A stretch of 64,000 nt of DNA from an uncultured Elusimicrobia bacterium (GTDB taxonomy: Bacteria > Elusimicrobiota > Elusimicrobia > Elusimicrobiales > UBA9959). This document shows, in pieces, positions 5,354 through 28,097 of this stretch. The notes under the pieces were generated by a model that made no database searches, was not told where the DNA came from, and saw nothing but the letters and a program-made list of their open reading frames with translations. The stretch is from contig CAIRNJ010000060.1 in assembly GCA_903879915.1 (NCBI GenBank), forward strand, positions 12,412 through 76,411, given 5' to 3'. Within the stretch, counting starts at the first letter, position 1. Every line of letters begins with the position of its first letter. The position numbers were made by a program, and so were the translations under genes.

Positions 5354-7104
5354 ACTTTACCTCCCGGCGGCGGAGGCTGCGGAGGGGCCTGCGGCGGAAC
5401 TACCGGGGCCGCGGGCGCGGCGGGCGGCATCGGCGCCGGCGCGGCGGGCGCGGCCGAAGCCGTCTGAGCTCCGGCGGGCGCGGCGGGCGCGGGCGCTTCG
5501 GGAGCGGGCGCCGCGGGGGCGGCCCCGGCGGGCACCAAAGCGGATTTTTCCTCCGCCGCCGCGGCGGCCGCCGCTTTAAGGGGATCGGCTATGCGTCCGT
5601 CGCCTATAAGCTTAAGCGCGGAAGTAACTACGGCGTCCACCGCCTTTTCGGTCTTTTCCTGCGAAGGCGCGCCGTACTTCATGGTCTGTTCCAGCATGGC
5701 CCAGGTCTTTTCGGTAAGCTGCATTTTAAGTTTGTCGCGGAACTCGGGGGAGAAATCCCACAGCGCCATGGCCCAGTCCTCTATCTTGACGGCGGTGGCG
5801 AGCACGCCCAGGTCCTTCTCAGACAGCTTCATCAGGTCCTCGGGCAGCAGGATGCGGCGCCTGACCTTGGCGGCGATATCCGGGTGGTGGCTCTCCAGTT
5901 TCGCTATCATCTCGCGCTTAACTTTCAGGCTCACCCTGTCGAGCGTGTCTATCACCACGTTGATGCCGCCGAAAGCGCCGGCCAGCTGTTTTTCTATCTC
6001 GTCGCGGATGGTGGAAATGACCTCGGGGTCCACGAAGCGCATGCGCGCCATGTTGGCCACCACCTCGGAGGAGGTCTCGGCGGGCAGCATGCGCAGGAAT
6101 TCCGTTTTTACGTCCTCCGGCAGATGCCCGGCCACCAGCGAGATGTTGGCGGGGTCCTCGCCGCTCATCAGGTTCACCAGGAAATCGATCTGTTCGAGCC
6201 TGACGTTGAAAAGCTGCTCCTGGTCCGGCTCGGCCATCGAATGCCGGCCGCCGCCGTCCTTCCTTTCCACGATGTCCACCTCGAGCTTGCCGCTCTGCCC
6301 TGGGCCGGGAGCTCCGCCGGGAAGGCCCGCGCCCGCCGCCCCGCCGCCCATGGCGGCGTTGCGGCCGAGGTCCATGGTTATCTGGTGGCTCTGCTGGGCC
6401 TTGGCCATGGTGTTCATGGCGGTGGCGAGCTTAAGGAAGCCCACGGCCACCATCATGGAAATGATGCCCATTATAGTGAGCAGGCTGTATTTAAAAATAA
6501 GGGCCATGGACTCGGGGGTGTTCCAGATGGTGCGCCAGAGCGGAGCGAAAGGGGTTTTTATTATGGCGATATCGTCGCCGCGCTTCACGTCCAGGCCCAG
6601 CACTTCCGAAACCACCGAGCGCACGTTCTGCGCGTCGGCGTCGCTCATCGTCTTATTAATAATAACAGTAACAACAAGTTTCCTTACGAAAGAAGTAGGG
6701 AAAGAAAGTTTTTTCGAATACGACTGGTTCTCCCCCTCGGCGCTCATGGTAGGGAACCCGGGAAGCAGATATTCGTTAAAAGGCTGCCCTTCGGTAGTGG
6801 GGCTCTGCCATTTGAACATCTCGTCTTTATTCGCGGGCGCGGCTTTATCGCCCCCGGCCTTGAGAATATTCATCTCCTCGGTGCGGGTAAAATCCATATC
6901 GGCCTGCACCACCACCTTGGCCTGGTTGGGGCCCAGCAGCTTCACCAGCACCTCGTCCACCTTTCCCTCGAGCGATTTCTCGTATTTGGCCTTGTCGTCG
7001 AGAGGGAGGCCCTGCGCGCCGAGCAGCGTGACCTGGACGAAAAGCAGCGCCAGGAGCGCTGCCGCGCCCCTTAATGCCGTTCTTATCGCCGTCGCGTTCT
7101 TCAT
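5350..7104 (-). CDS. FliF-like ring-building domain fused to FliG-like rotor/switch domains
   Basis: Order of elements: signal/TM segment, then KVDEVLVKLLGPNQAKVVVQADMDF...VRKLVVTVIINKTM...VLGLDVKRGDDIAIIKTPF (FliF/YscJ RBM3-like), then TM segment (LLTIMGIISMMVAVGFL). The FliG middle/C-like region follows (EDLMKLSEKDLGVLATAVKIEDWAMALWDFSPEFRDKLKMQLTEKTWAMLEQTMKYGAPSQ...ALKLIGDGRI), then a Pro/Ala tail. Confidence 0.7.
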   Translation of the reverse strand: MKNATAIRTALRGAAALLALLFVQVTLLGAQGLPLDDKAKYEKSLEGKVDEVLVKLLGPNQAKVVVQADMDFTRTEEMNILKAGGDKAAPANKDEMFKWQSPTTEGQPFNEYLLPGFPTMSAEGENQSYSKKLSFPTSFVRKLVVTVIINKTMSDADAQNVRSVVSEVLGLDVKRGDDIAIIKTPFAPLWRTIWNTPESMALIFKYSLLTIMGIISMMVAVGFLKLATAMNTMAKAQQSHQITMDLGRNAAMGGGAAGAGLPGGAPGPGQSGKLEVDIVERKDGGGRHSMAEPDQEQLFNVRLEQIDFLVNLMSGEDPANISLVAGHLPEDVKTEFLRMLPAETSSEVVANMARMRFVDPEVISTIRDEIEKQLAGAFGGINVVIDTLDRVSLKVKREMIAKLESHHPDIAAKVRRRILLPEDLMKLSEKDLGVLATAVKIEDWAMALWDFSPEFRDKLKMQLTEKTWAMLEQTMKYGAPSQEKTEKAVDAVVTSALKLIGDGRIADPLKAAAAAAAEEKSALVPAGAAPAAPAPEAPAPAAPAGAQTASAAPAAPAPMPPAAPAAPVVPPQAPPQPPPPGGKV

Positions 7105-7116
7105 ATAGATACTCTA

Positions 7117-7857
7117 TTAGACCAGGTACGACTGCAGCCGGCGCTCCACCACCATGGGGATGCTGCCTTTCATGATCTCCAGCACGCCTTCCAGGATCAT
7201 CGACTTGAGCTTGATCTGCCCTTCCATGCGCGAGCGCATCTTGCCGGAGATAGGGATGCAGACCATGTTGGCGAAAAGGATGCCGAAGAAAGCGGAGGAG
7301 ATGGCGACGCCCATGGCGGGGCCTACGCGGTCGGGGTCCGACACCTGCTTGAGCACGCCTATGATACCTATAAGAGTGCCGAGCAGCCCGAACATGGGCG
7401 AGAGCAGGCCGAAGGTGCGGTAGACGTTCGCTATCTCGTTCATTTCGTCGGCGCCCTTATTGATCTCTATCTCTATCACGTGCTTCACGAAATTGGAGTC
7501 GTTGTATTCCAGGGCCGCGGACGCCACCCGGGCCAGGAACCCGCCGGCGTGCTTGGGATCGGCCTCTTTGAGCGCCGACAGGCCCAGCGAGCGGCACTGT
7601 TCCGTCAGCGCCACCATTATAGGGATAGTGCGCTGGATATCCGCGTTCTCGTCGAGCATCATCAGCTTATACAGCTCGGTGAAAGCCTTCACGAGGTACT
7701 TGAACGGAGTATTAATAAGCATGGAGACGGCGCCGCCGCCCAGCACCACGAACACGGCGTGCGCGTTCAAAAGGGAAGGCTCAAGCTGACCGGTCTGCAC
7801 GCCCACGGTGATCAGCGTAAAGAAGCCGACGATGCCCAGAATAGTGGCGAAGTCCAT
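7117..7857 (-). CDS. motA: MotA/TolQ/ExbB-family proton-channel stator subunit
   Basis: 246 aa with the 2+2 TM layout and a large cytoplasmic loop between them. C-terminal TM pair motif LLSPMFGLLGTLIGIIGVL...GVAISSAFFGILFANMV. First gene of the coupled string with the FliF/G-like and MotB-like genes. Confidence 0.8.
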   Translation of the reverse strand: MDFATILGIVGFFTLITVGVQTGQLEPSLLNAHAVFVVLGGGAVSMLINTPFKYLVKAFTELYKLMMLDENADIQRTIPIMVALTEQCRSLGLSALKEADPKHAGGFLARVASAALEYNDSNFVKHVIEIEINKGADEMNEIANVYRTFGLLSPMFGLLGTLIGIIGVLKQVSDPDRVGPAMGVAISSAFFGILFANMVCIPISGKMRSRMEGQIKLKSMILEGVLEIMKGSIPMVVERRLQSYLV

Positions 7858-11591: not shown

Positions 11592-12302
11592 TCAGTTATC
11601 AGCGTCTTCCGTAGAAACTTCAGGTTTGGGAGAAACATCCTTTTTATGCGGGCCGGGCTTATTCTTTATCAGTTTCCGGATCGGGATCCCGGAAACTGCT
11701 TCTATCGTTTTCAGAAATTCCTCCCCCCCCATGGGCCTTCCGGTAGAGGAATGAGAGTGAAGACCGGTGGCCGTCTCTTTCGGGTCCGCCCCGGAAAGGA
11801 ATTCGCGCCAATTACTTATGATCTGTCCAACCCCGGAAACTTTAACCAGCTCGTCGTTCCTGTTGCGCATATGCGCTTTCGCGCTGCTCCATTTATAATC
11901 CTCGGCTTTTTTTACAAGCTTTGCCCGGACAGGGTTCATCTCGATGTAACGAGTTGCGGCGAGAAGGTAGCGTTCTTCCATCGGGAACGACGAGAATCTT
12001 TCCTGCCAGAGATGTCCTTTCCACCCCTCCCGCAAATTCACTCTGAGCGTATAGCGCCGGTGAGCCTCGCCGATCGCCCGGCACAAACCTTTCGTGTCGT
12101 GCGGAACGGCTACCAGATGCACATGATTCGGCATCAGGCAGTATGCCCAGATCTCTACCTTGTAATGCGCGCACCATTCACCCATCAATTTTATATACGT
12201 CCGGTAATCGTCCTCTGTAAAAAAAACCGGCTGGCGCCTGTTACCTCTTTGGGTAACATGGTGAGGATATCCGGGAACAACAATTCGCGCAAGTCTTGCC
12301 AT
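11592..12302 (-). CDS. REP-associated / IS200-like HUH tyrosine transposase (RayT family)
   Basis: MARLARIVVPGYPHHVTQRGNRRQPVFF...AYCLMPNHVHLVAVP (HUH motif HVH)...RYIEMNPVRAKLV (catalytic Tyr region). Confidence 0.85.
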   Translation of the reverse strand: MARLARIVVPGYPHHVTQRGNRRQPVFFTEDDYRTYIKLMGEWCAHYKVEIWAYCLMPNHVHLVAVPHDTKGLCRAIGEAHRRYTLRVNLREGWKGHLWQERFSSFPMEERYLLAATRYIEMNPVRAKLVKKAEDYKWSSAKAHMRNRNDELVKVSGVGQIISNWREFLSGADPKETATGLHSHSSTGRPMGGEEFLKTIEAVSGIPIRKLIKNKPGPHKKDVSPKPEVSTEDADN

Positions 12303-12405: not shown

Positions 12406-12453
12406 TTGTCTATTTTTAGTGATGTTTTTGCTATACTGGTGGGTAGGAGAGAC

Positions 12454-13368
12454 ATGTACACCCGTATAGACATCAAAATAACGTTCAGGTGCAACAATAA
12501 ATGCGATTTCTGCGCTCAGGGGCATAAACGGGATATATGCACCGACCGCACCCCGCAGCGCGTCTATGCCGACCTGGCGGCCGCCTATAAGCGCGGGGCC
12601 CGGGGCGTGGTCTTTACAGGCGGAGAGCCCACCATGCACCCCTCCGTGGTAGATTTCGTGGCCCGGGCTAAGAAATTGGGCTACCAGAAGATACAACTGC
12701 AGACAAACGGGCGCACCTTCGCCTACCCCAGCCTGCTGGAGCGGCTTAGAAAGGCCGGAGCCAATGAAATGGGGCCTTCGCTGCACGGGGCGAAAGCCGA
12801 GACCCATGACGGCCTTACGCACGCCCCCGGGAGCTTCCTGCAGACGGTCTCCGGCATAAGGAACGCCGCCCGGATGGGCTTTAACGTTATAACCAACACG
12901 GTCATAACCTCCGCCAATTACAGGGAACTTCCTGCCCTGGCGGGAATACTCGTTAAATTGGGCGTTACGCAGTACCAGTTCGCTTTCGTCCACATCATAG
13001 GTTCGGCCCTGGAAAACAAGAAATGGATAGTGCCGAAAAAGACGGAGATCATGCCCTGGGTGAAGAAAGGCCTCGATGCCGGGATCAAAAGCGGGATCGC
13101 CTGTTACACAGAAGCCATTCCGTTCTGCCTGATGCAGGGCTACGAGAACTGCGTGGCGGAACGGATAATCCCGGAAGGCCCGGTGGCGGACGGCGACAAA
13201 TTCATAGAGAACTACGGCGACTACCGCCGCAACGAGGGCAAGACCAAAGGCCCGCGCTGCCGGACCTGTAAATATTTCAAGATCTGCGAAGGCCCGTGGC
13301 GGGAATATCCTGAAATTTACGGGTGGAAGGAATTCCGCCCGGTCCTGGATAAACCCGGGAGCCGCTGA
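12454..13368 (+). CDS. Radical SAM protein with Cys-rich SPASM/twitch-like C-terminus
   Basis: CNNKCDFC (CX3CX2C) near the N-terminus, GGEPTMHP, and C-terminal CRTCKYFKICEG. Start moved to the ATG at 12454, preceded by GGAGAG. Confidence 0.85.
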   Translation: MYTRIDIKITFRCNNKCDFCAQGHKRDICTDRTPQRVYADLAAAYKRGARGVVFTGGEPTMHPSVVDFVARAKKLGYQKIQLQTNGRTFAYPSLLERLRKAGANEMGPSLHGAKAETHDGLTHAPGSFLQTVSGIRNAARMGFNVITNTVITSANYRELPALAGILVKLGVTQYQFAFVHIIGSALENKKWIVPKKTEIMPWVKKGLDAGIKSGIACYTEAIPFCLMQGYENCVAERIIPEGPVADGDKFIENYGDYRRNEGKTKGPRCRTCKYFKICEGPWREYPEIYGWKEFRPVLDKPGSR

Positions 13369-14675
13369 TGCCCCGCACAGTCACGAAACTTCTGGAACCT
13401 CTGCCAGGCATAAGAACGCTGGTCAGCGCAGCGGACAGGACCATCAAGATCTCCGTTTCCCCGGACAAGGCCGACCTTCCGGCCGCCCGCGCTTTTCTTT
13501 ACCGCGCGCTCAACGCGTACGAAAATAAATTCACCGTTCTCATCGAAGGCGTGCCGTTCTGTTTCCTGCCCGACGCTTACGACCATATCCTCCCCCCCCG
13601 CCGCTCCGGGAAGAACGTTTTCCCGGCCATCTGTAAGAAATGCCGCCTGAGGCCCGTCTGTCCCGGCCTGCGGCCGGGCCCGGTCCTTTCCGGCGCGGCG
13701 CAGCTCCTTAGGCCGGTCCTTGCAACGCCCAACGAACTGGTCATCGAGGTCAACCGCCGCTGCAACCTCGCCTGCGCCGTCTGCTCGGCGCGCGGCCTGG
13801 AAGAGGAACTGTCTTTCGGCGCGATGCAGGCCCACATGCGGAAGGCGCGCCGGCTGGGCATAAAAGATATCCGCTTTACCGGCGGAGAGCCGTTCCTCCA
13901 CCCGCGGATAGTAAAAACGCTGGCCGCCGCGAAAAAGGCCGGGTTTCACGTACTGGTCAACACCAACGCGACCTTACTGAGCCCGGCGCTGATAGAGCGC
14001 ATCGCCCCTTTAACGGACAACATACTGGTCTCGCTGCAGGGCCGCGACGAGCGAAGCGAAGCGGAGGCTACCGGCACTCCCGGCCTGTTCACGAAGAAGC
14101 TCGCCAATATCCGGGCGCTCAGGCGCGCCGGCATTCCGGTACTGCGGCTTGGGACCGTTATCTCCGGGGACCTGCTGGAGAATTTTGAAAAATATCTGCG
14201 GCTGGCGAAAGAGCTGGACGCCGACATCTGGGAGCTGTACCGCCCCATGCTGTCCGCCGGCAAAGGCCCGGCCGAGACCGTGACCCCCGCGGCGCTGCGC
14301 CGCCTGGCGCGGCGGCTAGAGGCCGGGCTCGGAGGCAGGCCACGCGTACTTTTCGCGAACCCGCTGCCGCTCTGCGTTTTCAAGAAAAGTCAGGCCCCCT
14401 TATTCCTGGGCGCGCGTTTCGACGACGGGCACACCCGGCTGGTACTGGACCCGCGCGGCTTTTACAAGCCGAGCTATTACATTCAGGAAAACCTGGGAAC
14501 GGACCTCCTGGCGGCCTGGAACGGCCGTTTTTTGAAAAAGATGCGCGCACTGGCTTATCTCGGAAAGAAATGTTCAAACTGCCCGCTGCGCCTGCGCTGC
14601 CTGGGAGGCAGCCGTTTTCTGGCGCGGGCCGTGCGCGGCAGTTATTTCAAGCCCGACCCCTGGCTGGCCGGCTGA
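13368..14675 (+). CDS. Radical SAM/SPASM protein with an extra N-terminal Cys-rich domain
   Basis: CNLACAVC (CX3CX2C), GGEPFLHP, and C-terminal CSNCPLRLRCLGG. N-terminal ~110 aa contain FCFLPDAYDHI...CKKCRLRPVCPG. Start overlaps the upstream stop (TGATG). Confidence 0.85.
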   Translation: MPRTVTKLLEPLPGIRTLVSAADRTIKISVSPDKADLPAARAFLYRALNAYENKFTVLIEGVPFCFLPDAYDHILPPRRSGKNVFPAICKKCRLRPVCPGLRPGPVLSGAAQLLRPVLATPNELVIEVNRRCNLACAVCSARGLEEELSFGAMQAHMRKARRLGIKDIRFTGGEPFLHPRIVKTLAAAKKAGFHVLVNTNATLLSPALIERIAPLTDNILVSLQGRDERSEAEATGTPGLFTKKLANIRALRRAGIPVLRLGTVISGDLLENFEKYLRLAKELDADIWELYRPMLSAGKGPAETVTPAALRRLARRLEAGLGGRPRVLFANPLPLCVFKKSQAPLFLGARFDDGHTRLVLDPRGFYKPSYYIQENLGTDLLAAWNGRFLKKMRALAYLGKKCSNCPLRLRCLGGSRFLARAVRGSYFKPDPWLAG

Positions 14676-14678
14676 AGG

Positions 14679-16508
14679 TCACTTCACGCCGGCAGTTTCC
14701 AGTGCCCGCGCTTCCTCGAGCCGCGGCCAGGAGGCCGGCGCGGTCTTTATGGTCCAGAGCAGCGTTTCCCTGGCCTCCTCTGCGCGCCCCAGCGCTTTCA
14801 GCAATTTATAACTTTCAAGCGAGGCGTCCAACCCCGTGAACGCAGCGCCTTCGACACCCGTATAATCGGCATAGGCCGCGCTTTGGCAGGCGGAGAGGGC
14901 TTCTTCTTTTTTATTCGCGGTGGCCAGGCGCATACACTTCTCTATAAGTGTTTCGGGCCTGGGGCGGGCGTGTTCCTCTACCAGGCGGGAAACTTTCCGT
15001 ATAACTTCAGCCGGCACGCCGTAGGACGAAAGTTTTTTAAGGATTTCTACCTGCTGCGCGCGCGAAAGGCTGTATTCCCCGCGGTGGAACCAGCCCAGCC
15101 CGAGCTCCCCCAGCCATTCAATGTTCTTTTCGTCGGAAAGCAGCTCGCTGTGCATGGCCGCTTCGGTCAGCCCGAGGGCCAGCCAGGCCGAAAAATTTTC
15201 CGGCTCCAGGGAAATGGCCTTCCGGAAACACGCGCGCGCCATTGTCAGCCTTTGCCCGGGCCAGACATGCCGCACGGCCACGTTGAACAGCCACCGGCCG
15301 CTGGTAAGCAGGGCGTTCGCCTGCTTGTCGCTGCCGTAGGAAAAAGCCCGGAACACGTCTTGCGGCCCCGAGAACCGCTTCAGCAGGGGCTCGTGAAAGC
15401 GCCCGGATATCTGTTCCGCGTACGCTTCGGCCAGCAGGATATAGCCGCTGAGGTTCGGATGGTGCCCGTCGGCGAAAAGGCCGCTGCCTACCAGCCCGTG
15501 CGGGGAGTTCGCTTCAAAAAGTTTCACGGCGTCTACCAGCGGCACGGAATATCTCCGGGCCAGGGCGCGGATGTAATCGTTCTGCAGACCCGTGGCCCGG
15601 TTGAAGTTATCCAGGGCGCCAAGGTCGGCGGCTTCCCTGTAGCTGCGCGCCGCGCTTTCATACCGGCCCAGCGCCCGGTAACAGCAGCCGCGGCGGTAGG
15701 TCAGGTACGCGCGCATCGCCGGATGCGCCGCGGCCTGCCCGGCATAATAGGCGATCGCGTCCGCCGCGCGCCCGTTATCTTCGAGCGCCTGCCCTTGCGC
15801 CAGCACCGCCCGCATCTGCTCGGCGCTCATATCCGGCTGCGGCAACAGCCCCGGGTCCATATCGGAAATATTCGTGGGGATAGTGGTAAGTACGGGCGTC
15901 AGGCCGCTCTTCAGGCTCAGCTCGACGATGCGGCGCAGGTGGTATTCATAAGTATCCAGGGTGCGCACCCTCAGGGGGCGGAACCGTTTTTCCGCGTAGA
16001 AGAGCAGGTCGCCGAGCAGCATTGACCGGGACAGGACGTTCTCCCGCAGCCATTCCAGGGCCGGCAGCCCGCGCATGTTGCCGGCGTCGCTGTTGCCCGT
16101 ATAAACAAGCACCGCGCCGGGGTTGTCCCGGTTCCGGGTCCGGAGCGCCTGTTCGAGCGCCACCGCCTGCGGGTAAACGGATTCGCCGCGCCGGGCGAAG
16201 TTGAATTCACGGATAGGCCGGTCCTGCAGCCTGCCCCCGAACAGCCGCGACACCATCGCGGGCGGCGTGATGCCCGGATCGTACGGCTCTCCCGCCGCCA
16301 CGGATTCCCCCACCATGTAAAGCGCGAAATAGCCGCTTTTGCCGGCGGCCGCGGAGTGCGCGCGTTTGTACGCCCAGAAAGCCCGGTACAGCAGTTCCGA
16401 AGCGAGCAGCAGGCCGAGTACGGCTATAAAACCGGCGGCAAAAAGCCTGCGCCGGCGCGCCGGGTCCGGAGCTAAGATCGGGCTTTTCTCTCTTTCAGGC
16501 ATAATCAA
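14679..16508 (-). CDS. Membrane-anchored SGNH/GDSL-like domain plus TPR-repeat protein
   Basis: N-terminal TM segment, LYMVGESVAAGEP (GxS block I-like), and multiple TPR-like helices. C-terminal ~45 aa closely match the ORF at 58681-60723. Confidence 0.55.
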   Translation of the reverse strand: MIMPEREKSPILAPDPARRRRLFAAGFIAVLGLLLASELLYRAFWAYKRAHSAAAGKSGYFALYMVGESVAAGEPYDPGITPPAMVSRLFGGRLQDRPIREFNFARRGESVYPQAVALEQALRTRNRDNPGAVLVYTGNSDAGNMRGLPALEWLRENVLSRSMLLGDLLFYAEKRFRPLRVRTLDTYEYHLRRIVELSLKSGLTPVLTTIPTNISDMDPGLLPQPDMSAEQMRAVLAQGQALEDNGRAADAIAYYAGQAAAHPAMRAYLTYRRGCCYRALGRYESAARSYREAADLGALDNFNRATGLQNDYIRALARRYSVPLVDAVKLFEANSPHGLVGSGLFADGHHPNLSGYILLAEAYAEQISGRFHEPLLKRFSGPQDVFRAFSYGSDKQANALLTSGRWLFNVAVRHVWPGQRLTMARACFRKAISLEPENFSAWLALGLTEAAMHSELLSDEKNIEWLGELGLGWFHRGEYSLSRAQQVEILKKLSSYGVPAEVIRKVSRLVEEHARPRPETLIEKCMRLATANKKEEALSACQSAAYADYTGVEGAAFTGLDASLESYKLLKALGRAEEARETLLWTIKTAPASWPRLEEARALETAGVK

Positions 16509-16533: not shown

Positions 16534-17889
16534 TCAGGACCGGCGGGCCTTCCGGATGCCGCGGATCTTATCGGCGAAAAGTTTTTCCAGCGCAGCGTAG
16601 GAGGAAAGGATGTCCTGGCCGTCCACGCCGCAGAAATGCCTGCGCCAATCGTCGTAGAACCCGCTGTCGCCCGGCAGGTCGGAGCCGCGATACTTGGGCT
16701 CCTTCGCAAGGAAACGGCGGCGCACCTCCGTTCCCGGCAGGACGGAAAAAACAGCGAGGCGCACCATTTTCCAGCTTATCTCCGGCAGTTCAAGCTTTTT
16801 CATTTCAGCCAGGGTCCCGGCCAGGGTCGCGCGCGTTTCCCCCGGCAGGCCCAGTATGAGGTTTACGATGGGGACCAGTCCGGCCCCGGCCGTCAGGGCG
16901 ATGGCGCGCCTGTTCAAAGCCACGCTGGCCCCTTTCCCCACGCCGCGCAGCACGGCGTCAGACATGGATTCAATACCCAGGCTGATATAGTTGGCGCGCA
17001 CCGCTTTAAGCAAGGCTATCACGCGCGGAGTCAGAGAAGAAGCGCGGGCAAAGATCTTAAGCACCGGAGTTTTTTTCCCGGCCGCCGCGGCCGCGAACCG
17101 CTCCAGCCAGGCGGCGTCGGCTGGAAAATCGTCGCTGCACTCGTAAACGTGCCTGACGCCCAGCTTGCCGTAAAGATGCGCCAGCTGCGCGGCCGCGGTT
17201 TCCGGGGGCAGGGCGCGCAGCCCTTTCGCCTGTATGCCGCAGAAGGTGCAGCGCCCGGCCCCCTCAGCCCATTTACAGCCGCGCTGGGAGGCGAACGAGA
17301 CCATGCGCCGGGAGTGCGCGGGCTGCAGGCGGAAATACGCGCCGAGGTCCGCCAGCGTATAATCTACGGGCGGCAGCCGCGCCAGGTCCAGGTTTTCCGA
17401 CGGGTTCTCTACAACTTTCCCGCGCGGGTCCTGGTAGATGAGGTTCTTTATGCTTTTATAAGCCGCGCCGCGGGCCAGTTCGCAGATGGCTTTTTCGCCG
17501 TCGTAGCGCACGATGGCGTCCACGCAATGGTCCCGGGAGCCGCGGCCCCGGTTGGCGAAGATCTCGTCCTTGAGCACCGGCGCGTAATGCCCGCCCAGCA
17601 CCACCACGGCGCCGTTCCTGTGCACCAGGCGCGCGGCTTCGAGCACCCTTTCGTAAGTACGCATCACCGGGCTGAAACCGGCCAAGTCATACCGCTCCGA
17701 CGCCAACTTTTTCAGAAAACGCGCGCGGCCCAGCACCTGTTCGTCGAGGATATCTACTTTTACGGAGGGAAGGGTCTCGCGCAGATAAGTGGCCAGCGAC
17801 AGCGCCCACAGCGGGGGCATGATCTCGAGCCACCGCTCCGTGCAGGGATTGTCTTCTGGCAGCGCCCGGTAGATGAGAGCTATCTTCAT
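16534..17889 (-). CDS. B12-binding-domain radical SAM protein with an expanded Cys motif (CX8CX2C)
   Basis: N-terminal Rossmann-like B12 domain (YDLAGFSP...VVVLGGHYAPV), then SQRGCKWAEGAGRCTFCGI. Confidence 0.75.
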   Translation of the reverse strand: MKIALIYRALPEDNPCTERWLEIMPPLWALSLATYLRETLPSVKVDILDEQVLGRARFLKKLASERYDLAGFSPVMRTYERVLEAARLVHRNGAVVVLGGHYAPVLKDEIFANRGRGSRDHCVDAIVRYDGEKAICELARGAAYKSIKNLIYQDPRGKVVENPSENLDLARLPPVDYTLADLGAYFRLQPAHSRRMVSFASQRGCKWAEGAGRCTFCGIQAKGLRALPPETAAAQLAHLYGKLGVRHVYECSDDFPADAAWLERFAAAAAGKKTPVLKIFARASSLTPRVIALLKAVRANYISLGIESMSDAVLRGVGKGASVALNRRAIALTAGAGLVPIVNLILGLPGETRATLAGTLAEMKKLELPEISWKMVRLAVFSVLPGTEVRRRFLAKEPKYRGSDLPGDSGFYDDWRRHFCGVDGQDILSSYAALEKLFADKIRGIRKARRS

Positions 17890-17899
17890 CGCAAAAGAA

Positions 17900-19174
17900 T
17901 TATCTGCTCAGCAGGCTGTTGAGCAGCCGGCCGGTCAGCGAAACCGCCCCGGCAAAGCCCAGGAACGGCTCGTCGGAGAGGCAGTGGTGCCCGTACGAAG
18001 GGAACCCCAGCTCGACGTAAGGCCTTTTCATGTCCAGCAGCTCCGTGACCGTGAACGAGTTCCCCACCACCACGTCCGTGCGGGAATAGCCGGAAAGGTC
18101 CCTGATCAGGGAAAGGGCCTCGGCCGTGTCCGGCGCGAACAGCAGCGCGCGCGGGAGCCTGTCGGTCCCAAGGGGCCTCGCGAACGAGTCCAGCAGCGCG
18201 CAGTTTATCCGCATTCCTAATTCCGGGGCCAGCGAGGCGAAAGCGGCGAAAAGGCAGGGGTCGCCGGCGTAAGCGACGTTCTGGTGGGCCAGCGCGTGCA
18301 GCGCCGGGGCCATGGCGGCGGCCGTGCTTTTCGCCAGGGCGGTTACGGCCGGCGGGAGCCCCTCTTTTATTCCGGCCGCGGCGCGAACACTTTCCAGCCA
18401 GCGGCAGGTGCCGCCGATCCCCATCGGCAGCCCTGTCTCCACCAATTTGGCGCCGGAGCGGGCAGCTATCGCGGCCGCCGCCGCGCGCCCGTAAGGCAGG
18501 GATACGACCACGTCGGCCTCAAGCGCGCCGCTCAGAGCCCCGAATCCGCCGCCGGAAGGGAAAACGCAGGCCAAGCCGAGGCCGCACAGCTCCAGCAGCC
18601 GGCGGAGCTCAGCGATATTGGCGGAATGGTCTCTTTCATTGCGGTCCATCAAATAGCCGACCAGGGCCACCGAGCGCTTGCGCCTTTTCACCTTCCGGTC
18701 CGGCAGCGCGCGCGCCAGCGCGGCCAGCGCCTGCGCGTAGCCGTCCAGCCAGTCGGCCTCGTTATGCGGCACCGGGACGTCCAGCACCGGTACGCGGGCG
18801 GTCAGCCCCGCCGCTATGCCCTCGTAGTCCATGCCGGCCATCTTCAAAAAAGGGAGGCTGGTAAGCAGTATCACGGAAAAGTCCTTCTGGTCGGCGACCC
18901 CGAGCAGGATGTCGGTCAGCTTCTTCTCGGGATCCTGCCGCTGCGGCAGCGGCGCCGACATGGTGCACAGCACGCGGTGCCTGCCGTCGGCGGAAAGCAG
19001 CGTGGAGTAAAGATCGTGGTTGCCGGCCAGGAAATCCACCTTCGGCATCACGCAGTTCGGCCCGTCCACCACCAGGCAGGCGTCCGCCACGGCGTTGACG
19101 GCAAGGTAGACGCCGAGCTGATACGGCAGATTGAAGGTCTTGGGGAACCTATGGCTTGGAAAGGTATTGTTCAT
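17900..19174 (-). CDS. Nitrogenase component-1-type oxidoreductase subunit (NifK/N / BchB/N-like)
   Basis: 424 aa. ADACLVVDGPNCVMPKVDF resembles the H-G-P-x-G-C region of the family, and the layout is Rossmann-like throughout. Start overlaps the upstream fusion gene by 26 nt. Confidence 0.6.
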   Translation of the reverse strand: MNNTFPSHRFPKTFNLPYQLGVYLAVNAVADACLVVDGPNCVMPKVDFLAGNHDLYSTLLSADGRHRVLCTMSAPLPQRQDPEKKLTDILLGVADQKDFSVILLTSLPFLKMAGMDYEGIAAGLTARVPVLDVPVPHNEADWLDGYAQALAALARALPDRKVKRRKRSVALVGYLMDRNERDHSANIAELRRLLELCGLGLACVFPSGGGFGALSGALEADVVVSLPYGRAAAAAIAARSGAKLVETGLPMGIGGTCRWLESVRAAAGIKEGLPPAVTALAKSTAAAMAPALHALAHQNVAYAGDPCLFAAFASLAPELGMRINCALLDSFARPLGTDRLPRALLFAPDTAEALSLIRDLSGYSRTDVVVGNSFTVTELLDMKRPYVELGFPSYGHHCLSDEPFLGFAGAVSLTGRLLNSLLSR

Positions 19175-21671
19175 TGAAATCCCAGTCGCAGAGTTCCAGC
19201 AGCCGGCGCCAGCTCTCTACGGCGCCCCCGTAACCGGGCTCCAGAAGCCCGGCGGAGAAAGAATTCTTGCCCGCCGCCGCCACCCGGGGGTCCCGGCGCA
19301 CGTCAGAATACACCAGTTTAAGCGCGCTGTCGGAGCGCAGCAGGACGTTCAGCTCCTCCATCGTCCGGAAATATTTTACGGAGAAAACGCCGGCGGGAAC
19401 GCGGGCTTTAAGTTCCTTCAGGTCCGCGGCCAAGGCTTTCGAAGGGCCGTCGCCTTTCAGGAACAGCTTAATTCTGAAACCGGCCTCGGCCAGCAGGGCC
19501 AGCACCGGCCGCATCTTTAAAGCGGCCTCCCCCGCCAGAAGCCTGAGCTCGCCCGCCTCCAGCACGAAGCCGGCAGAGTACGCGCGGGCGCGGCGCCAAA
19601 GACCGGCCGCTTCCTTTTTCTGGGCCGGCGAGGGGCCGGCCGTGAACTTTTTGCGGCCCAGCGCGGCGGCTATCGCGGCCAGCCAGGCGTCCGTGCCCGA
19701 GAAACCGTACGGGGCCGGCAACAGCAGCCATTTCAGTCCGGCCTTGGCAAAAGCGGGCTGCAGCACCGTGTCCGGGTGCGACAGCACCTGCACCCGGGCC
19801 GAGCGGGCGGCGGCGTAAAAGTCCTCTCCCGGGCCGGCCATGGAGAGGCCGGCGTCTTTCAGCACGCCGGCTATCTTTTCCCACATCAGCCCCTCGGTGA
19901 CAAGATGCACGTCGCACGTTTTCTCCGGGCCGCCGCGGCGCAGCCTGTCGGCCATGAAATCGGCGCGCACCGCCGCCTTGGCCGGCGAGTGCTCCCCGAA
20001 ACTGTTGTAATTTTCCAGCACCACCTTCACGCCGGTTTCGCGCCCCACTTTTTCGGCGTGGGCACTGACGTCGCCGGCCAGCAGCATCGCGGAGCAGCCC
20101 ACATAAAACTCCACCAGCCCGCCGGGGCCCGCGTTCCGGGCCGCGCCGGAGAGGGAGGCCAGCACTTTGGCGTCGTCGCCCAGCACGGCGTCCGTGCCGT
20201 TGAAATCCGTATTGGCTATCTGCGCGGTCCCCCGCGGCAGGATGGGCCCGCGCGTGCCCGAAGAGTTCAGGCGGTCGCGCCCGCTGAACAGTCCCATGTT
20301 CCCGCCGTCGCAGCCGCTGAAGCGGCATTCCATATCCCCGTGCTCCACCATCATCGAGCCCTGCGGCACGCAGGCCTGCAGCGCGCCGCCGGGGAAGATG
20401 AAGCGCTGCCACTGCCCGAACGCCATGTGCGGGCGCTTGGGCGCGCCGGTCGAGGACTGGTCTTCGTTCTCGGCGCGGGTGCTGGAGGCTATCCCGCCGT
20501 AAAAATCCTTGGTCCCGGTAAAGACCGAGAGCATTTCGCCGAAGCTGAACTGCGACAGCCTGGCCACCGCGGTCCGGAGTTCGTCGTACAGCCTGCCGGT
20601 GACCAGGCCGGCGGAAGGGTGGAAGCAGGAGGTCCAGTCCGAAAACCGCAGCATTCCGCCCCTGGCGGAGGCCGCCGGGGCTATCACTATCCTGCGCGCG
20701 CCCGCCGACGAGGCCCAGTCGCACATTATCTGCCCGTCCTCGATGCCCGCCACCTTGAAGCCGGCCGACGTGAAGACGGAGCGCAGCGGCCTGCCTTCGC
20801 GCGCGACCGTTTTCCCGGCCGCCGGCGGCGGCGCGGCCGGCGCGGCGGAGAACGCCTTGCCGGGCACATGCGCGCCCTCGGTAAAAGAAAAGAACTCGGC
20901 GTCGGTCAGCGCGCGCGGCGGCGCGGCCGGCGGCGCGGCGGCCCGGATGGCGGCGCTGAGGCGCACGATGCGGAGCGTAAAATCGCTGCCGGGATAGGCG
21001 AGCGCGGCCGGGCGCTTCGCCCGCTCCGCCTTAGCCACCACGGTATCGTGAAGTATAACGCCCAGCACGCGCGTATTTACCGCACGGGCGAAAGCTTCCG
21101 CGAAAGCGGCGCCCTCGGCGTTGCGGGCGTTCACGGCCAGCCCCGCCAGGTAGACGCCGTTGCGCGCATAGTTGTTGACCATCGTTATCAGCCGGTTGGC
21201 CGCGTAAAGGGACAGGCTTTCCTCCGAGGTCACGATGACGACCTTCCTGGAGAACCCCCGCCGCAGCGGCGCGGCGAAGCCGCCGCAGACCACGTCGCCC
21301 AGCACGTCGAAGATAGCGGCGTCGTACCCGTCCTTTTCAAGGATGGCGCCCGCTTTCATCTCGTCGAGCATGGCGCCTATGCCGGCGCCGGCGCAGCCCA
21401 TTCCCGGGTTGGGGCCGCCGGCCTCGATGCAGTAAACGCCTTTGATCGCTGAGGGATAGATGCTTTCGCGCAGGTTGGACCGGCCGGCGCTGCCGGGATT
21501 ATCGGAAAAGGGCTGGATGCGCCCGCGCATCAGCGTAAGCGCGGAATCCATTTTGGGGTCGCAGCCTATGTGCAGGACCTTGCTTCCCCCTGCGGCCATC
21601 AGCGCCGTCACGTTGGCCGCGATGGTGCTTTTGCCTATGCCGCCCTTGCCGAAGAATACGATGCTTTCCAT
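19149..21671 (-). CDS. Fusion protein: NifH/BchL-like Fe-protein ATPase (N-terminus) plus nitrogenase component-1-like domain (C-terminus)
   Basis: N-terminal ~260 aa carry GKGGIGKST (P-loop), GCDPKMDS (switch I), EAGGPNPGMGCAGAGI and DVLGDVVCGGFAAPLR (both 4Fe-4S Cys ligands). An Ala/Pro-rich linker follows (AAAPPAAPP...AAPAAPPPAAGK). The remaining ~540 aa include FYVGCSAMLLAGDV...VKVVLENYNSFG, typical of component-1-like folds. Confidence 0.75.
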   Translation of the reverse strand: MESIVFFGKGGIGKSTIAANVTALMAAGGSKVLHIGCDPKMDSALTLMRGRIQPFSDNPGSAGRSNLRESIYPSAIKGVYCIEAGGPNPGMGCAGAGIGAMLDEMKAGAILEKDGYDAAIFDVLGDVVCGGFAAPLRRGFSRKVVIVTSEESLSLYAANRLITMVNNYARNGVYLAGLAVNARNAEGAAFAEAFARAVNTRVLGVILHDTVVAKAERAKRPAALAYPGSDFTLRIVRLSAAIRAAAPPAAPPRALTDAEFFSFTEGAHVPGKAFSAAPAAPPPAAGKTVAREGRPLRSVFTSAGFKVAGIEDGQIMCDWASSAGARRIVIAPAASARGGMLRFSDWTSCFHPSAGLVTGRLYDELRTAVARLSQFSFGEMLSVFTGTKDFYGGIASSTRAENEDQSSTGAPKRPHMAFGQWQRFIFPGGALQACVPQGSMMVEHGDMECRFSGCDGGNMGLFSGRDRLNSSGTRGPILPRGTAQIANTDFNGTDAVLGDDAKVLASLSGAARNAGPGGLVEFYVGCSAMLLAGDVSAHAEKVGRETGVKVVLENYNSFGEHSPAKAAVRADFMADRLRRGGPEKTCDVHLVTEGLMWEKIAGVLKDAGLSMAGPGEDFYAAARSARVQVLSHPDTVLQPAFAKAGLKWLLLPAPYGFSGTDAWLAAIAAALGRKKFTAGPSPAQKKEAAGLWRRARAYSAGFVLEAGELRLLAGEAALKMRPVLALLAEAGFRIKLFLKGDGPSKALAADLKELKARVPAGVFSVKYFRTMEELNVLLRSDSALKLVYSDVRRDPRVAAAGKNSFSAGLLEPGYGGAVESWRRLLELCDWDFNEQYLSKP

Positions 21672-22745: not shown

Positions 22746-24185
22746 TCAGGCCTCCGTTTCGTAACCCACGTAAGGGTTGAGCGGCCCGTCCTTGTATTTA
22801 TCCTTTTTGAAAGGCAGCAGGTCCGGATGGCAGAAGAACTGGGCGATCTCGTCGGCGAAGAACCGGCCCAGCTTGGTGAGTTTCAGGTATTCGGCGTCCT
22901 CCTGCAGCAGGCCGTGGTCCTTGAGCAGCTGTATTTTTTTGCCGAACACCGCGCCGGGGTCCGCGCCGGTAATATCCCTGAACTGTTTCTTCAGCAGGTG
23001 CATGTTCTTCAAAGGCATGCTGATGTTCCTGCGCAGCTGCTGGTCGCGCGTGCGGATAGCGCCGGTCTTTATCGGCATTTTCCCGCTCTCTATGGCGGCG
23101 TAATATTCCTTCAGGTCGGGGGTGTTCTGCGAGAACCTGTCGCGCAGCATGGTCATGGAGTACAGGCCGAAACCCAGATTATCGTGCTGCCCCCCCATCC
23201 AGTCGCTCATGTAATACGAATAATCCGCCGGGGTTTTCGAGAAGAACCGCGACATGGTCTCATGGTAGCCGTTCTGCTCCAACAAGCCTATGGCCACCGC
23301 CTTCAGCCGTATCTGCTCGTCGTTGGTGATCAGCGGGTTGCCGCGCGAGTCGAACAGGCTGTAGATCGCCCCGGTATGCACGCCCATAGGCAGGATCTTC
23401 AGCCGGTAGATTATGATCTCGTCCACTTCGCAGCGCAGCGCCTGCCTGACCATGTCCACCCAGAGTTCGGGGGTCTCGCCGGGATAGCCGCAGATCAGCT
23501 CCAGGTTCACTTTGAACCCCATCTCCTTGGCCATGCTGATGGCCCTGAGAGAATCGGCGGTGTTGTGGTGGCGGGCCATCTTTTTCAGGATGGGGTCGGA
23601 GAACGCCTGCACGCCTATCGCGAGCCTGCGCACGCCGGCGTCGCGCATGATCTTCAGGCGCTCTCGCCCCTCGTAGCCCAGCAGGAAGAACGGGCTGGTG
23701 TCGCAGGAGAACTGCGTCATCGCGGTCATATCCATGCGGGCGGTAAAGAAATTGAAGAACCGCTTCATCTGCGCCGGCGAGATGAACGTGGGCGTGCCGC
23801 CGCCGAGCAGGATGGAACGGGCCTTCACCCGGCTGACGCCGAACCGGCTCATGGAGATATCCATTTCCTTCTCGAGGTGATCGAGATAGACGTCCTTGTC
23901 CCCCTCGGTGGAGCCGAGGACGTTGGGGAAATGGCAGAACGCGCAGCGCATCATGCAGAACGGGAAATGCACGTACACGCAGGAGCTGTCCTCATGCGGG
24001 ACGTAGCCGTCAAGGAACCCCTCCGCCTTCATCGGCGGGTACTGCATCATCGTAGGGTACATCAAAGACGGGAAGAATTCCCCGTCCTTGTTGATCAGGC
24101 CGCTGTCGATAAGATGGTGAAAATCACCCACCGTTCTGCGCGCGTTCTCAAGTATCGTTGGATCGACTATTTCTTCGTTAAGCAT
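22746..24185 (-). CDS. HemN-like (class C-type) radical SAM protein, paralogue 1
   Basis: HFPFCMMRCAFCHFPN (CX3CX2C), GGGTPTF, and a HemN-like C-terminal domain. Start moved to the ATG at 24183-24185 (MLNEEIV...). Confidence 0.8.
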   Translation of the reverse strand: MLNEEIVDPTILENARRTVGDFHHLIDSGLINKDGEFFPSLMYPTMMQYPPMKAEGFLDGYVPHEDSSCVYVHFPFCMMRCAFCHFPNVLGSTEGDKDVYLDHLEKEMDISMSRFGVSRVKARSILLGGGTPTFISPAQMKRFFNFFTARMDMTAMTQFSCDTSPFFLLGYEGRERLKIMRDAGVRRLAIGVQAFSDPILKKMARHHNTADSLRAISMAKEMGFKVNLELICGYPGETPELWVDMVRQALRCEVDEIIIYRLKILPMGVHTGAIYSLFDSRGNPLITNDEQIRLKAVAIGLLEQNGYHETMSRFFSKTPADYSYYMSDWMGGQHDNLGFGLYSMTMLRDRFSQNTPDLKEYYAAIESGKMPIKTGAIRTRDQQLRRNISMPLKNMHLLKKQFRDITGADPGAVFGKKIQLLKDHGLLQEDAEYLKLTKLGRFFADEIAQFFCHPDLLPFKKDKYKDGPLNPYVGYETEA

Positions 24186-24270
24186 AGTCACCCCCCACAA
24201 CGAATATCCGCCGCGCACGGCGGCGGACAGCTAAAGTGCTCCTCCACAAAAGCCGGTTCTTTCTTTATTA

Positions 24271-26645: not shown

Positions 26646-28097
26646 TCAGCAGGTCAGGGTAACGTTGTCCGTATAGGGGTTGAGCGGGCCGTCCTTATAA
26701 CATTCCCTTTTAAAGGGCAGGTAGTCCGGGTGATAGAACAGCTGCGTCATCTCGTCGATGAAGAACCGGCCTTTCTTCGTGGGCCTCAGGAAGTCGGCGT
26801 CCTCCTCCAGCAGGTCGTATTTCTTCAGCAGGGCTATCTTTCCGCTGAACACCGCGTTCGGCGATACGCCCATCCTGTCCTGGTATAACTTTTTCGACAG
26901 CAGGCACCTGTTCTTCAGCGGCATCATAAAATTGCGCCTGAGCTGCTGGTCGCGGCTGCGCACTATGCCTATCTTTACCGGCAGCCTCCCCGCGTCCACT
27001 TCGGAGCAATACTCTTTAAGGTCCCAGGTATTCTGCTTCTGCCTGTCGTGGAAAGCGCTCATGGCGTAATAGCCGAAGCCGATATTGTCGTACCTGGTCT
27101 CGCCGAGCCAGTCGTCGAGATAAACCGAGTAATCCTCGCTGGTCCTGGCGAAGAAGCGAGTAACGGTCTCAACGAAGCCGCTGCGCTCGAGCAGGCTGAT
27201 GGACACGGATTTCAGCATTACCTGCTCGTCGTTGGACATCAGCGGGTTGTCCCGCGCGTTGAGCATTTTGTTCACCGCTGCGGTGTTGATGCCGTAAGGA
27301 AGTATCTTTAACCGGAAGACCACGATCTCGTCGACGTCCAGCTTGACGGCCTGCTTCATCATCTCCACCCAGTGTTCCGGAGTTTCTCCGGGATAATCGC
27401 AGATCAGTTCCAGGTTCAGTTTGAACCCCATTTCCTTGGCCACGCCTATCGCTCTCAGGGTATCGGCGGCGGTATGATGGCGGCCCATTTTTTTAAGCAT
27501 GTCATCGGAAAGGGTCTGGGCGCCCAGCGCCAGGCGGCCCACGCCGGCGTCGCGCATGATTTTCAGGCGCTCCCTGCCTTCGTAGCCGAGCATCGTCAGC
27601 GGGTCGAGGTCCACGGAGAACTGTTTCATTTCCCCCATGTCGACGCGGGACGTGAAGAAAGAAAGGAACCGCTTCATCTGCGCCGGGGTCATAAGGGTTG
27701 GCGTGCCGCCGCCGACGCTGATGCAATGCGCCTTCATTCTGTTTACGCCGATCTTTTTCAGGTATAGCTCCATTTCCTTGTTCATGTGATCCAGGTAGAC
27801 GTCCTTCTCACCGTCGGACGCCCCCAGCACGTTCGGGAAATGGCAGAACGCGCACTGCTGTATGCAGAACGGGATGTGCCCGTAGACCATGAACTTATTA
27901 TCCCTGGGCGGCACGTAGCCTTTCAGGAATTCTTTTTCCGTCATCGGCGGATGCTGCGTCATGGGCAGATACATGAGAGTGGGCACGAACTCCCCCTCTT
28001 TGTTGATCAAGCCCAGGTCTATGAGCTCGTGAAACTCCCGCACCGTTCTATGCGCTTTCTCAAGTATCTCAGGTTCAAGTATAGCTGAGGTCAGCAT
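26646..28097 (-). CDS. HemN-like (class C-type) radical SAM protein, paralogue 2
   Basis: HIPFCIQQCAFCHFPN. Collinear with the ORF at 22746-24185 along its full length, roughly two-thirds identical by eye. Confidence 0.8.
   Translation of the reverse strand: MLTSAILEPEILEKAHRTVREFHELIDLGLINKEGEFVPTLMYLPMTQHPPMTEKEFLKGYVPPRDNKFMVYGHIPFCIQQCAFCHFPNVLGASDGEKDVYLDHMNKEMELYLKKIGVNRMKAHCISVGGGTPTLMTPAQMKRFLSFFTSRVDMGEMKQFSVDLDPLTMLGYEGRERLKIMRDAGVGRLALGAQTLSDDMLKKMGRHHTAADTLRAIGVAKEMGFKLNLELICDYPGETPEHWVEMMKQAVKLDVDEIVVFRLKILPYGINTAAVNKMLNARDNPLMSNDEQVMLKSVSISLLERSGFVETVTRFFARTSEDYSVYLDDWLGETRYDNIGFGYYAMSAFHDRQKQNTWDLKEYCSEVDAGRLPVKIGIVRSRDQQLRRNFMMPLKNRCLLSKKLYQDRMGVSPNAVFSGKIALLKKYDLLEEDADFLRPTKKGRFFIDEMTQLFYHPDYLPFKRECYKDGPLNPYTDNVTLTC

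Follow-up and report, generated by a model that had tools for sequence, protein, structure and literature searches.

A nitrogenase-like locus of an uncultured Elusimicrobia bacterium encodes a conserved fusion of an Fe protein with a component-1-like subunit

We analyzed a stretch of 64,000 nucleotides (nt) from an uncultured Elusimicrobia bacterium (GenBank assembly GCA_903879915.1, contig CAIRNJ010000060.1, positions 12,412 to 76,411 of the forward strand; hereafter the window) and found that a nitrogenase-like locus at window positions 17900 to 21671 encodes an Fe protein (NifH-like, H) covalently fused to an alpha-type component-1-like subunit (NifD-like, D), with a beta-type partner gene (NifK-like, K) adjacent. 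The fusion is real and conserved, and the locus is a member of the described, uncharacterized Group VI of nitrogenase-like enzymes. The best explanation overall, in which we have moderate confidence, is a two-gene Group VI enzyme composed of a tethered H-D protein and its K partner that acts as an ATP-driven low-potential reductase and not as a nitrogenase. In the characterized enzymes of the nitrogenase family the Fe protein is a separate dimer, as had been pointed out in an earlier note on this DNA, and its docking, ATP hydrolysis and release pace catalysis.

The fused gene is conserved among Elusimicrobia

The fused protein is encoded by an open reading frame (ORF) of 840 amino acids (aa) on the minus strand (19149..21671), in which Pfam recognized Fer4_NifH at residues 3-259 (E = 5.6e-59) and Oxidored_nitro at residues 479-756 (E = 9.5e-12). 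The start of the 424-aa ORF of the NifK/NifN-like partner (17900..19174, minus strand; Pfam Oxidored_nitro at residues 83-421, E = 5e-36) overlaps its end by 26 nt (19149-19174). The H, D-like and K-like types are each represented by a single ORF in the window. Both ORFs, their coordinates and their overlap agree with the earlier note. Its reading of the partner as a second component-1-like subunit is supported, and the overlap is in line with translational coupling.

The covalent fusion claimed in that note could be an artefact of assembly or gene calling if a missed stop codon or a frameshift in the linker were hiding separate nifH-like and nifD-like genes. The linker DNA is GC-rich and of low complexity, which makes sequencing errors plausible there, and in two Myxococcales relatives H and D really are separate genes, with 18-24 nt between them. 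However, the identical 840-aa protein was called on at least 10 independently assembled contigs from several samples, assemblies and assemblers, always with the same neighbours, and a database search returned ~90 full-length homologs of 790-890 aa, ranging from 96% down to 29% identity, nearly all of them from Elusimicrobia metagenome-assembled genomes (MAGs) and all with the same two-domain layout. In an alignment of 90 homologs the ATPase and cluster motifs are invariant, and the junction (residues 261-300), which shows the lowest conservation and the most gaps (up to 42%), keeps its frame throughout across linkers of varying length. A 268-aa close relative (P0121), listed as a 'stand-alone' cluster representative, was considered as a split orthologue and rejected, since it proved to be a piece, cut off at the end of a contig, of a fused protein of 838 aa. 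The artefact explanation is effectively refuted, and we give it practically no chance of being correct.

A genome scan with the C-terminal part as query (an alignment of 6 sequences) yielded 28 Elusimicrobia loci. At every locus with a complete gene, H and D form a single ORF, one K-like gene adjoins each HD gene, and no solo H gene is found within 10 kb. In most of the loci the HD gene precedes the K gene, and the order is reversed in seven; that the fusion is kept despite this rearrangement argues for selection on the junction. Several Elusimicrobia genomes carry 2-4 paralogous HD-K pairs (L009:9137-16858; L005; contigs L009, L023 and L026 of the MAG WAS_Bin_5), and among these paralogs two pairs in tandem as well as both gene orders within one genome were seen.

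Domain organization of the 840-aa protein

Residues 1-262 (20886..21671, minus strand) constitute the Fe-protein (NifH-like) ATPase domain, as indicated by its motifs, by phmmer searches of the PDB and by Foldseek. A P-loop (GKGGIGKS, residues 8-15), a switch I (GCDPKMD, residues 36-42) and a switch II are present, and the [4Fe-4S] ligands are Cys93 (21393-21395) and Cys129 (21285-21287), the equivalents of Cys97 and Cys132 of Azotobacter vinelandii NifH. The P-loop, switch I and both Cys are invariant in 70-90 fused homologs, and the statement of the earlier note that ATPase and cluster residues are intact is borne out. The best PDB match of this domain was MarH (9fmg_D) both with phmmer (2.6e-46) and in structure, where Foldseek gave a template modelling score of 0.92 to the same chain; with the full-length model as query, Foldseek returned Fe-protein matches only and nothing on the D-like or middle domains.

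An AlphaFold2 model of the whole protein, based on 70 homologs, reached a mean predicted local distance difference test (pLDDT) value of 84.6 and consists of the Fe-protein fold, a disordered stretch (residues 272-288), a compact unit (296-397), a second disordered stretch (393-410) and the D-like domain. The ~540 aa that had been taken as component-1-like sequence following an Ala/Pro linker therefore have to be subdivided: the assignment holds for the NifD-like domain of ~415 aa, while the remainder comprises linker sequence, a middle domain of ~100 aa and a flexible segment.

The linker (residues 263-295; 20787..20885, minus strand) is predicted to be flexible, with pLDDT values below 50 for residues 272-288 and low conservation. 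Its composition is biased towards Ala, Pro, Gly and Arg, and its length, measured between the Fe-protein and middle-domain profiles in 94 homologs, varies from 18 to 56 aa with a median of 27. The middle domain (residues 296-397; 20481..20786, minus strand) is specific to this family. It is predicted to adopt a confident fold of four strands followed by three helices, also when modelled alone (pLDDT ~95), and contains a conserved Asp345-Trp346 pair and Pro352 as well as Cys317 and Cys349, which are found in ~80% of homologs. The domain has no match in Pfam or NCBIfam, its predicted fold has no significant match in the PDB (best E = 0.18), and the hidden Markov model (HMM) built from it matches this Elusimicrobia family only. 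A second flexible segment (residues 398-424) lies between the middle and the NifD-like domains.

Cluster ligands of the NifD-like domain and the NifK-like partner

The component-1 alpha-type identity of residues 425-840 (19152..20399, minus strand) was established by comparing their profile with the PDB, where it matched MarD (1.7e-18), NifD (3e-11), NifE (3e-10) and, weakly, BchN (4e-4). The profile of the K-like partner matched beta-type subunits best, namely AnfK (1e-18), NifK (3e-16), NifN (7e-15) and BchB (2e-11). Profile alignment to PDB sequences places the invariant Cys449 (20325-20327) at the position of alphaCys88 and the invariant Cys526 (20094-20096) at that of alphaCys154. There is no conserved Cys equivalent to alphaCys62 (Cys434 occurs in 31% of homologs), the cofactor-ligand position alphaCys275 corresponds to Ser631/His632, and the position of alphaHis442, judged by eye without a tool alignment, is taken by the invariant Tyr788. 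In the K-like partner Cys41 (19052-19054) is invariant, also in Myxococcales, Cys70 and Cys33 are conserved in 90% and 83% of sequences, and the betaCys153 position is not a Cys. With two invariant Cys contributed by the D-like domain and one by the K-like partner, the presumed D/K interface has three to four conserved Cys, a number that suits a simple inter-subunit [4Fe-4S] cluster and not a P-cluster.

Among the window ORFs there is no second Oxidored_nitro pair that would represent NifEN, and NifB is absent from the NCBIfam matches shown for six radical S-adenosylmethionine (SAM) proteins of the window, three further B12-binding ones having been scanned with Pfam only. As the H, D-like and K-like ORFs are single, no NifB match was obtained and the ligands of the iron-molybdenum cofactor (FeMo-co) are absent, N2 fixation by this system is unlikely, which agrees with the conclusion that the earlier note had drawn from the lack of FeMo-co genes.

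NifE and NifD receive similar scores from the D-like profile, and the scores of NifN and NifK with the K-like profile are close to each other. Such scores would also suit a cofactor-assembly scaffold, in which a NifEN-like core carrying its own NifH-type maturase domain would assemble or insert a metal cluster made with the help of the radical SAM enzymes nearby. For FeMo-co to mature, NifH has to act on NifEN, and earlier authors described genes of this kind as nifH/nifE-like followed by nifN-like. However, no client enzyme was found in the window and no NifB-type gene among the matches shown, the cofactor-site Cys is absent, and the 2-4 HD-K copies per genome are a better fit to catalytic paralogs. 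We regard a scaffold as quite improbable and retain the interpretation of the D-like and K-like subunits as a catalytic core.

Fusion architectures and the docking arginine

A HMMER search with the Fe-protein domain alone against 1.84 billion cluster representatives gave 1741 matches. We assigned 248 collected relatives to architecture classes with HMMs built from our own alignments: 94 have the H-mid-D architecture of the 840-aa protein, 86 are H-D proteins without the middle domain, 13 are tandem H-H-D proteins, 11 are H-H proteins, and 43, some of them fragments, consist of H only. The closest relatives of the Fe-protein domain are thus often fused, and the fusion is less exceptional than the earlier note suggested.

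The H-D class of ~700 aa is found in Methanomassiliicoccales archaea and probably corresponds to the 'fused nifH/nifE' genes noted in 2012 and 2014. P0179, P0195, P0204 and ~35 other such proteins from Methanomassiliicoccales/Methanomethylophilaceae are annotated just as 'AAA family ATPase', and these fusions are distinct from the CfbCD genes of the same methanogens. The P-loop, the switches and both Cys are retained in each of the two Fe-protein copies of the H-H-D proteins, and by their motifs these proteins appear to be single-chain pseudo-dimeric Fe proteins fused to their catalytic partner. The H-H-D family (P0090-P0109) measures ~1080-1106 aa; at the locus of P0092 (L033:10001-14674) its gene lies beside a K-like gene of 433 aa, with Peripla_BP_2/FecCD/ABC importer genes and an ABC exporter gene on the flanks.

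The two Myxococcales relatives (MAG loci L031:8062-12648 and L032:7408-11907) are split into an H gene of 275-299 aa and, after the short gap mentioned above, a D-like gene of ~750 aa, which is followed by a K-like gene. The first ~380 residues of the Myxococcales D-like protein match neither Pfam nor the Elusimicrobia middle domain. In a rough neighbour-joining tree of H domains, calculated without support values, the H-mid-D proteins form one clade, whose sister is a mixture of other Elusimicrobia H-D fusions, the split Myxococcales H proteins and stand-alone H proteins, while the archaeal H-D and the H-H-D proteins are placed elsewhere. This topology suggests several fusion or fission events.

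In A. vinelandii NifH, Arg100 in the Cys-Ala-Gly-Arg motif of the first cluster Cys is a docking residue and the site of ADP-ribosylation. At this position the 840-aa protein has Ala96 (21384-21386). Arg was found in 74 of 86 H-D proteins, in all 26 domains of the H-H-D proteins, in 29 of 36 stand-alone H proteins and in both Myxococcales H proteins, but in none of 95 H-mid-D sequences, which have Ala, Thr or Val instead; the equivalent of Arg140 (Arg137) is kept in all classes. The possibility that the docking arginine was lost as a consequence of fusion itself was considered and rejected, since Arg is kept in the other fused classes. The Arg100-type loss together with the extra middle domain, both of which go beyond the earlier note, hints at a remodelled docking interface in the H-mid-D family.

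Affiliation with the Group VI nitrogenase-like enzymes

Meheust et al. (2020; bioRxiv 10.1101/765248) described Group VI as a clade of nitrogenase-like proteins in groundwater Elusimicrobia, which has homologs in Myxococcales and also in Gracilibacteria. The group was defined on NifH-like proteins from Elusimicrobia genomes of lineages IV and V and placed outside groups I-V as the sister of group V. According to these authors, the Group VI NifH-like proteins keep the nucleotide motif and both Cys, the NifD/K-like genes are very divergent, lack the P-cluster Cys and come without accessory genes, and many radical SAM genes, some with B12-binding or HemN_C domains, are adjacent; the enzymes were predicted to reduce a tetrapyrrole (bioRxiv 10.1101/765248). 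A 2026 Chem Rev review (PMC13474568) gives the same account, using the names NflH, NflD and NflK, and states that no member has been characterized.

Full-length homologs with 50-60% identity to the 840-aa protein were found in loci of Elusimicrobia GWF2_62_30, GWD2_63_28, GWC2_64_44 and RIFOXYA12_FULL_57_11. We assign the locus to Group VI on the basis of these homologous loci from GWF2_62_30, which is named by Meheust et al. (2020), and from related Elusimicrobia MAGs, and of the Myxococcales relatives. The system is therefore not newly found, as the earlier note would have it, but belongs to a clade already described (bioRxiv 10.1101/765248; PMC13474568).

All curated NCBIfam models scored far below their cut-offs. 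This applies to those of nitrogenase (nifH, 196 against 394 bits; N2-ase-I alpha, 15 against 486; nifK, 29 against 427), to those of DPOR and COR (BchL, 147 against 345; BchX, 136 against 331; BchN, 51 against 420; BchB, 41 against 490) and to CfbC (203.6 against 402). The proteins accordingly belong to the nitrogenase superfamily and to none of the named families.

As for the fusion, Dos Santos et al. (2012) mentioned nifH/nifE-like fusions followed by nifN-like genes in Archaea, Firmicutes and Deltaproteobacteria, without showing the data, and filtered these proteins out, and Borrel et al. (2014) listed a 'fused nifH/nifE' gene in a Methanomassiliicoccales genome. The words 'fused' and 'fusion' are not applied to Group VI genes in the preprint text, the supplement legends or the review text, a search that did not cover the figures of the preprint, including the gene-neighbourhood figure S6. 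Both the system and the notion of such a fusion had thus been on record before, and the fusion itself has so far received only passing mention in the searchable literature.

Neighbouring genes and candidate substrates

Immediately downstream of the K-like gene, after 10 nt, lies a gene for a 451-aa radical SAM enzyme (16534..17889, minus strand; Pfam Radical_SAM), which resembles B12-binding radical SAM methyltransferases, as the B12-radical-SAM families were its best NCBIfam matches, all below cut-off. A gene for a 609-aa GDSL-type hydrolase with TPR repeats (14679..16508, minus strand; Pfam Lipase_GDSL and TPR) follows after another 25 nt. With gaps of -26, 10 and 25 nt, these four genes apparently form one operon, of which the GDSL/TPR gene is probably the last. 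No riboswitch or other RNA was found in an Rfam scan of the window, and a promoter and terminator scan of the strand of the fusion gene gave nothing exceeding the shuffled expectation.

Beyond this operon, two convergent radical SAM genes (12406..14675, plus strand) encode an HxsC-like protein of 320 aa and an AhbD/PqqE-like protein of 435 aa, both assigned from Pfam and NCBIfam matches below cut-off. Upstream of the locus are a HemN-like radical SAM protein of 490 aa (22746..24218, minus strand; Pfam Radical_SAM and HemN_C, NCBIfam below cut-off) and a second HemN-like copy (26646-28097, minus strand). The surrounding island at ~12-57 kb (12406-57000) contains at least nine radical SAM genes, four of them B12-binding and two HemN-like, at least six sulfatases, two phosphodiesterase-type genes, two methyltransferases and two SsuA/NMT1/phosphonate-type binding proteins, as well as genes for a phosphate-type porin, MFS and EamA transporters and a MetA-pathway outer-membrane channel. 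At its edge the island is bordered by a Y1 transposase gene of the IS200 type (11592-12302, minus strand).

Among 28 related loci, 19 have radical SAM genes within 7 kb, and homologs of the 320-aa radical SAM type were detected by BLAST in 11 related loci. By clustering, the GDSL/TPR protein is the second most recurrent neighbour (9 loci), and everything else varies. In one related locus an additional D-like/K-like pair (L036:4154-7220; 552 and 471 aa) without an Fe-protein gene of its own was seen beside an H-D and K pair and several radical SAM genes.

The enzyme is probably not a nitrogenase and most likely carries out the ATP-driven low-potential reduction of a small molecule in a pathway rich in radical SAM enzymes, for which a tetrapyrrole-type cofactor is the published guess (bioRxiv 10.1101/765248). 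According to this Group VI hypothesis, the enzyme would be a tetrapyrrole reductase like DPOR, COR or CfbCD and would act with HemN-like and B12-dependent radical SAM enzymes in the synthesis of a novel cofactor. The two HemN_C radical SAM genes and the several B12-binding ones in the window are consistent with this, two characterized nitrogenase-like groups reduce tetrapyrroles, and the low number of cluster-ligand Cys is nearer to DPOR and CfbD than to a P-cluster. However, only 3 of 30 related loci contain homologs of the HemN-like neighbours, and the neighbours that recur most often are generic radical SAM enzymes and the GDSL/TPR hydrolase. No tetrapyrrole biosynthesis gene was seen among the annotated window ORFs, and MarD, NifD/K and NifE/N are matched by the D-like and K-like profiles with far better scores than BchN/B. 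A tetrapyrrole substrate is thus possible but rather doubtful.

The closeness of the H and D-like parts to MarH and MarD, their closest solved relatives, could instead point to a reductase of an organosulfur or other heteroatom bond that serves nutrient scavenging, like MAR or isethionate reductase. The latter works with a radical SAM enzyme (PMC11423573), and the sulfatases, the two SsuA/NMT1-type binding proteins and the transporters of the window would suit such a role. Sulfatases, however, stand beside HD-K in only 1 of 30 related loci, so that this part of the island is not conserved, and MAR uses a NifB/MarB-derived complex cluster (PMC13474568), whereas no NifB was found among the matches shown for the window and the alphaCys275 equivalent is missing. 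An organosulfur reductase is therefore unlikely.

Outside the island, a 584-aa ORF (5350-7104, minus strand) joins the C-terminal domain of FliF to the middle and C-terminal domains of FliG in an apparent FliF-FliG fusion. It is situated between MotA-like (7117-7857) and MotB/OmpA-like (3040-3732) genes and adjoins a 539-aa ORF without a Pfam match.

Model of a tethered reductase

In the proposed model, the D-like and K-like subunits would form the catalytic core and would share an inter-subunit Fe-S cluster, most likely a [4Fe-4S] cluster held by Cys449 and Cys526 of the D-like domain and Cys41 of the K-like partner together with Cys70 or Cys33. Two Fe-protein domains would have to pair in order to hold the bridging [4Fe-4S] cluster and to hydrolyze ATP. 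With one H domain per D-K pair, an (HD)2K2 complex would have one Fe-protein dimer for two catalytic halves, which would be half of the canonical complement whatever the assembly. Electrons would be delivered by a permanently tethered and not by a freely diffusing donor, which might act either on one half or alternately on both. The H-H-D proteins would restore one pseudo-dimer per D-K pair and could represent a different solution to the same constraint. According to the review (PMC13474568), CfbC stays stably bound to CfbD, which questions an obligatory dissociation in nitrogenase-like enzymes and, by analogy, makes a cycle without diffusive dissociation plausible here. That the tether changes stoichiometry and mechanism is reasonable to infer from subunit counting, and was stated too firmly in the earlier note.

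Several points weigh against this interpretation. The proposed stoichiometry and the putative tethered cycle are deduced from counting subunits. Cys41 of the K-like partner would correspond to betaCys95 by a motif match, the profile alignments stopping short of the K-like N-terminus. The loss of the Arg100 equivalent goes with the middle-domain family and not with fusion. The gene context beyond HD-K differs between loci, some of which have no nearby radical SAM gene, so that the assignment to a pathway is weak. Finally, the extra D-like/K-like pair at L036 raises the possibility that a tethered H domain may also serve another core in trans.

With these points in mind, we tentatively propose an enzyme whose Fe protein does not leave by diffusion during the cycle. 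One dimer would be shared between the two catalytic halves, either in obligatory alternation or by acting on one side, and the middle domain and the loss of the Arg100 equivalent would create a new docking or gating interface. Together with the H-D and H-H-D proteins, the enzyme might be part of a large branch of the superfamily that has repeatedly fixed the electron donor to its core.

A natural fusion that is conserved and, by its residues, catalytically intact offers a direct way to test the need for Fe-protein release, and split (Myxococcales), H-D and tandem H-H-D relatives are available for comparison. The predicted fixed ratio of one Fe-protein dimer to two catalytic halves bears on half-of-sites models, and the fusion could be a template for engineering simpler single-chain reductases. 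The gene content of Group VI can also be read more correctly, as a fused H-D gene is easily counted as nifH alone. The locus is typical of Group VI, and its value lies in a conserved, analysable fusion with its variants and not in a new system.

Comparison with known systems

The locus resembles the Group VI nitrogenase-like systems in its phylum, in the genomes that carry homologous loci, which include one named in its description, and in its Myxococcales relatives. The NifH motifs and both cluster Cys are present, the D-like and K-like parts are divergent, without most P-cluster Cys, any FeMo-co ligand or NifB/EN, and many radical SAM genes, including B12-binding and HemN_C types, are found nearby. 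It differs in that the searchable texts treat NflH, NflD and NflK as separate, whereas here H and D are one polypeptide that contains a middle domain and has lost the Arg100 equivalent.

Like the nifH/nifE-like fusions mentioned in 2012 and 2014, the 840-aa protein is a natural fusion in which a single ORF joins an N-terminal Fe-protein domain to an alpha-type, NifD/E-like domain, with a beta-type, NifK/N-like gene adjacent. In contrast to it, those fusions measure ~700 aa, have no middle domain, keep the Arg100 equivalent and belong to another branch of the rough H-domain tree.

MarHDK (PDB 9fmg, 9d9u) provides the closest solved structures for the H and D-like domains and shares the three-component H/D/K logic. 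However, MarH is a separate protein, and the NifB/MarB-derived complex cluster of MAR has a Cys ligand, at the alphaCys275 position of MarD, that is absent here; no MarB/NifB was found in the window among the matches shown.

With DPOR and CfbCD the system has in common an ATP-dependent Fe protein, a component-1-like core, a simple inter-subunit [4Fe-4S] cluster, as predicted here, and a reduced number of Cys ligands. The Fe proteins of both are separate, the profile similarity to BchN/B is weaker than that to NifD/K, and CfbD is homomeric, whereas a K-like partner adjoins HD in every complete locus of the present family.

The Mo, V and Fe nitrogenases share with it the domain folds, the ATPase motifs, the H/D/K triad and the equivalents of alphaCys88 and alphaCys154 of NifHDK. 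They differ from it in having the full set of six P-cluster Cys, including alphaCys62, the cofactor ligands alphaCys275 and alphaHis442 (the latter compared by eye), the NifB, NifE and NifN proteins, and an Fe protein that is not fused to its catalytic partner.

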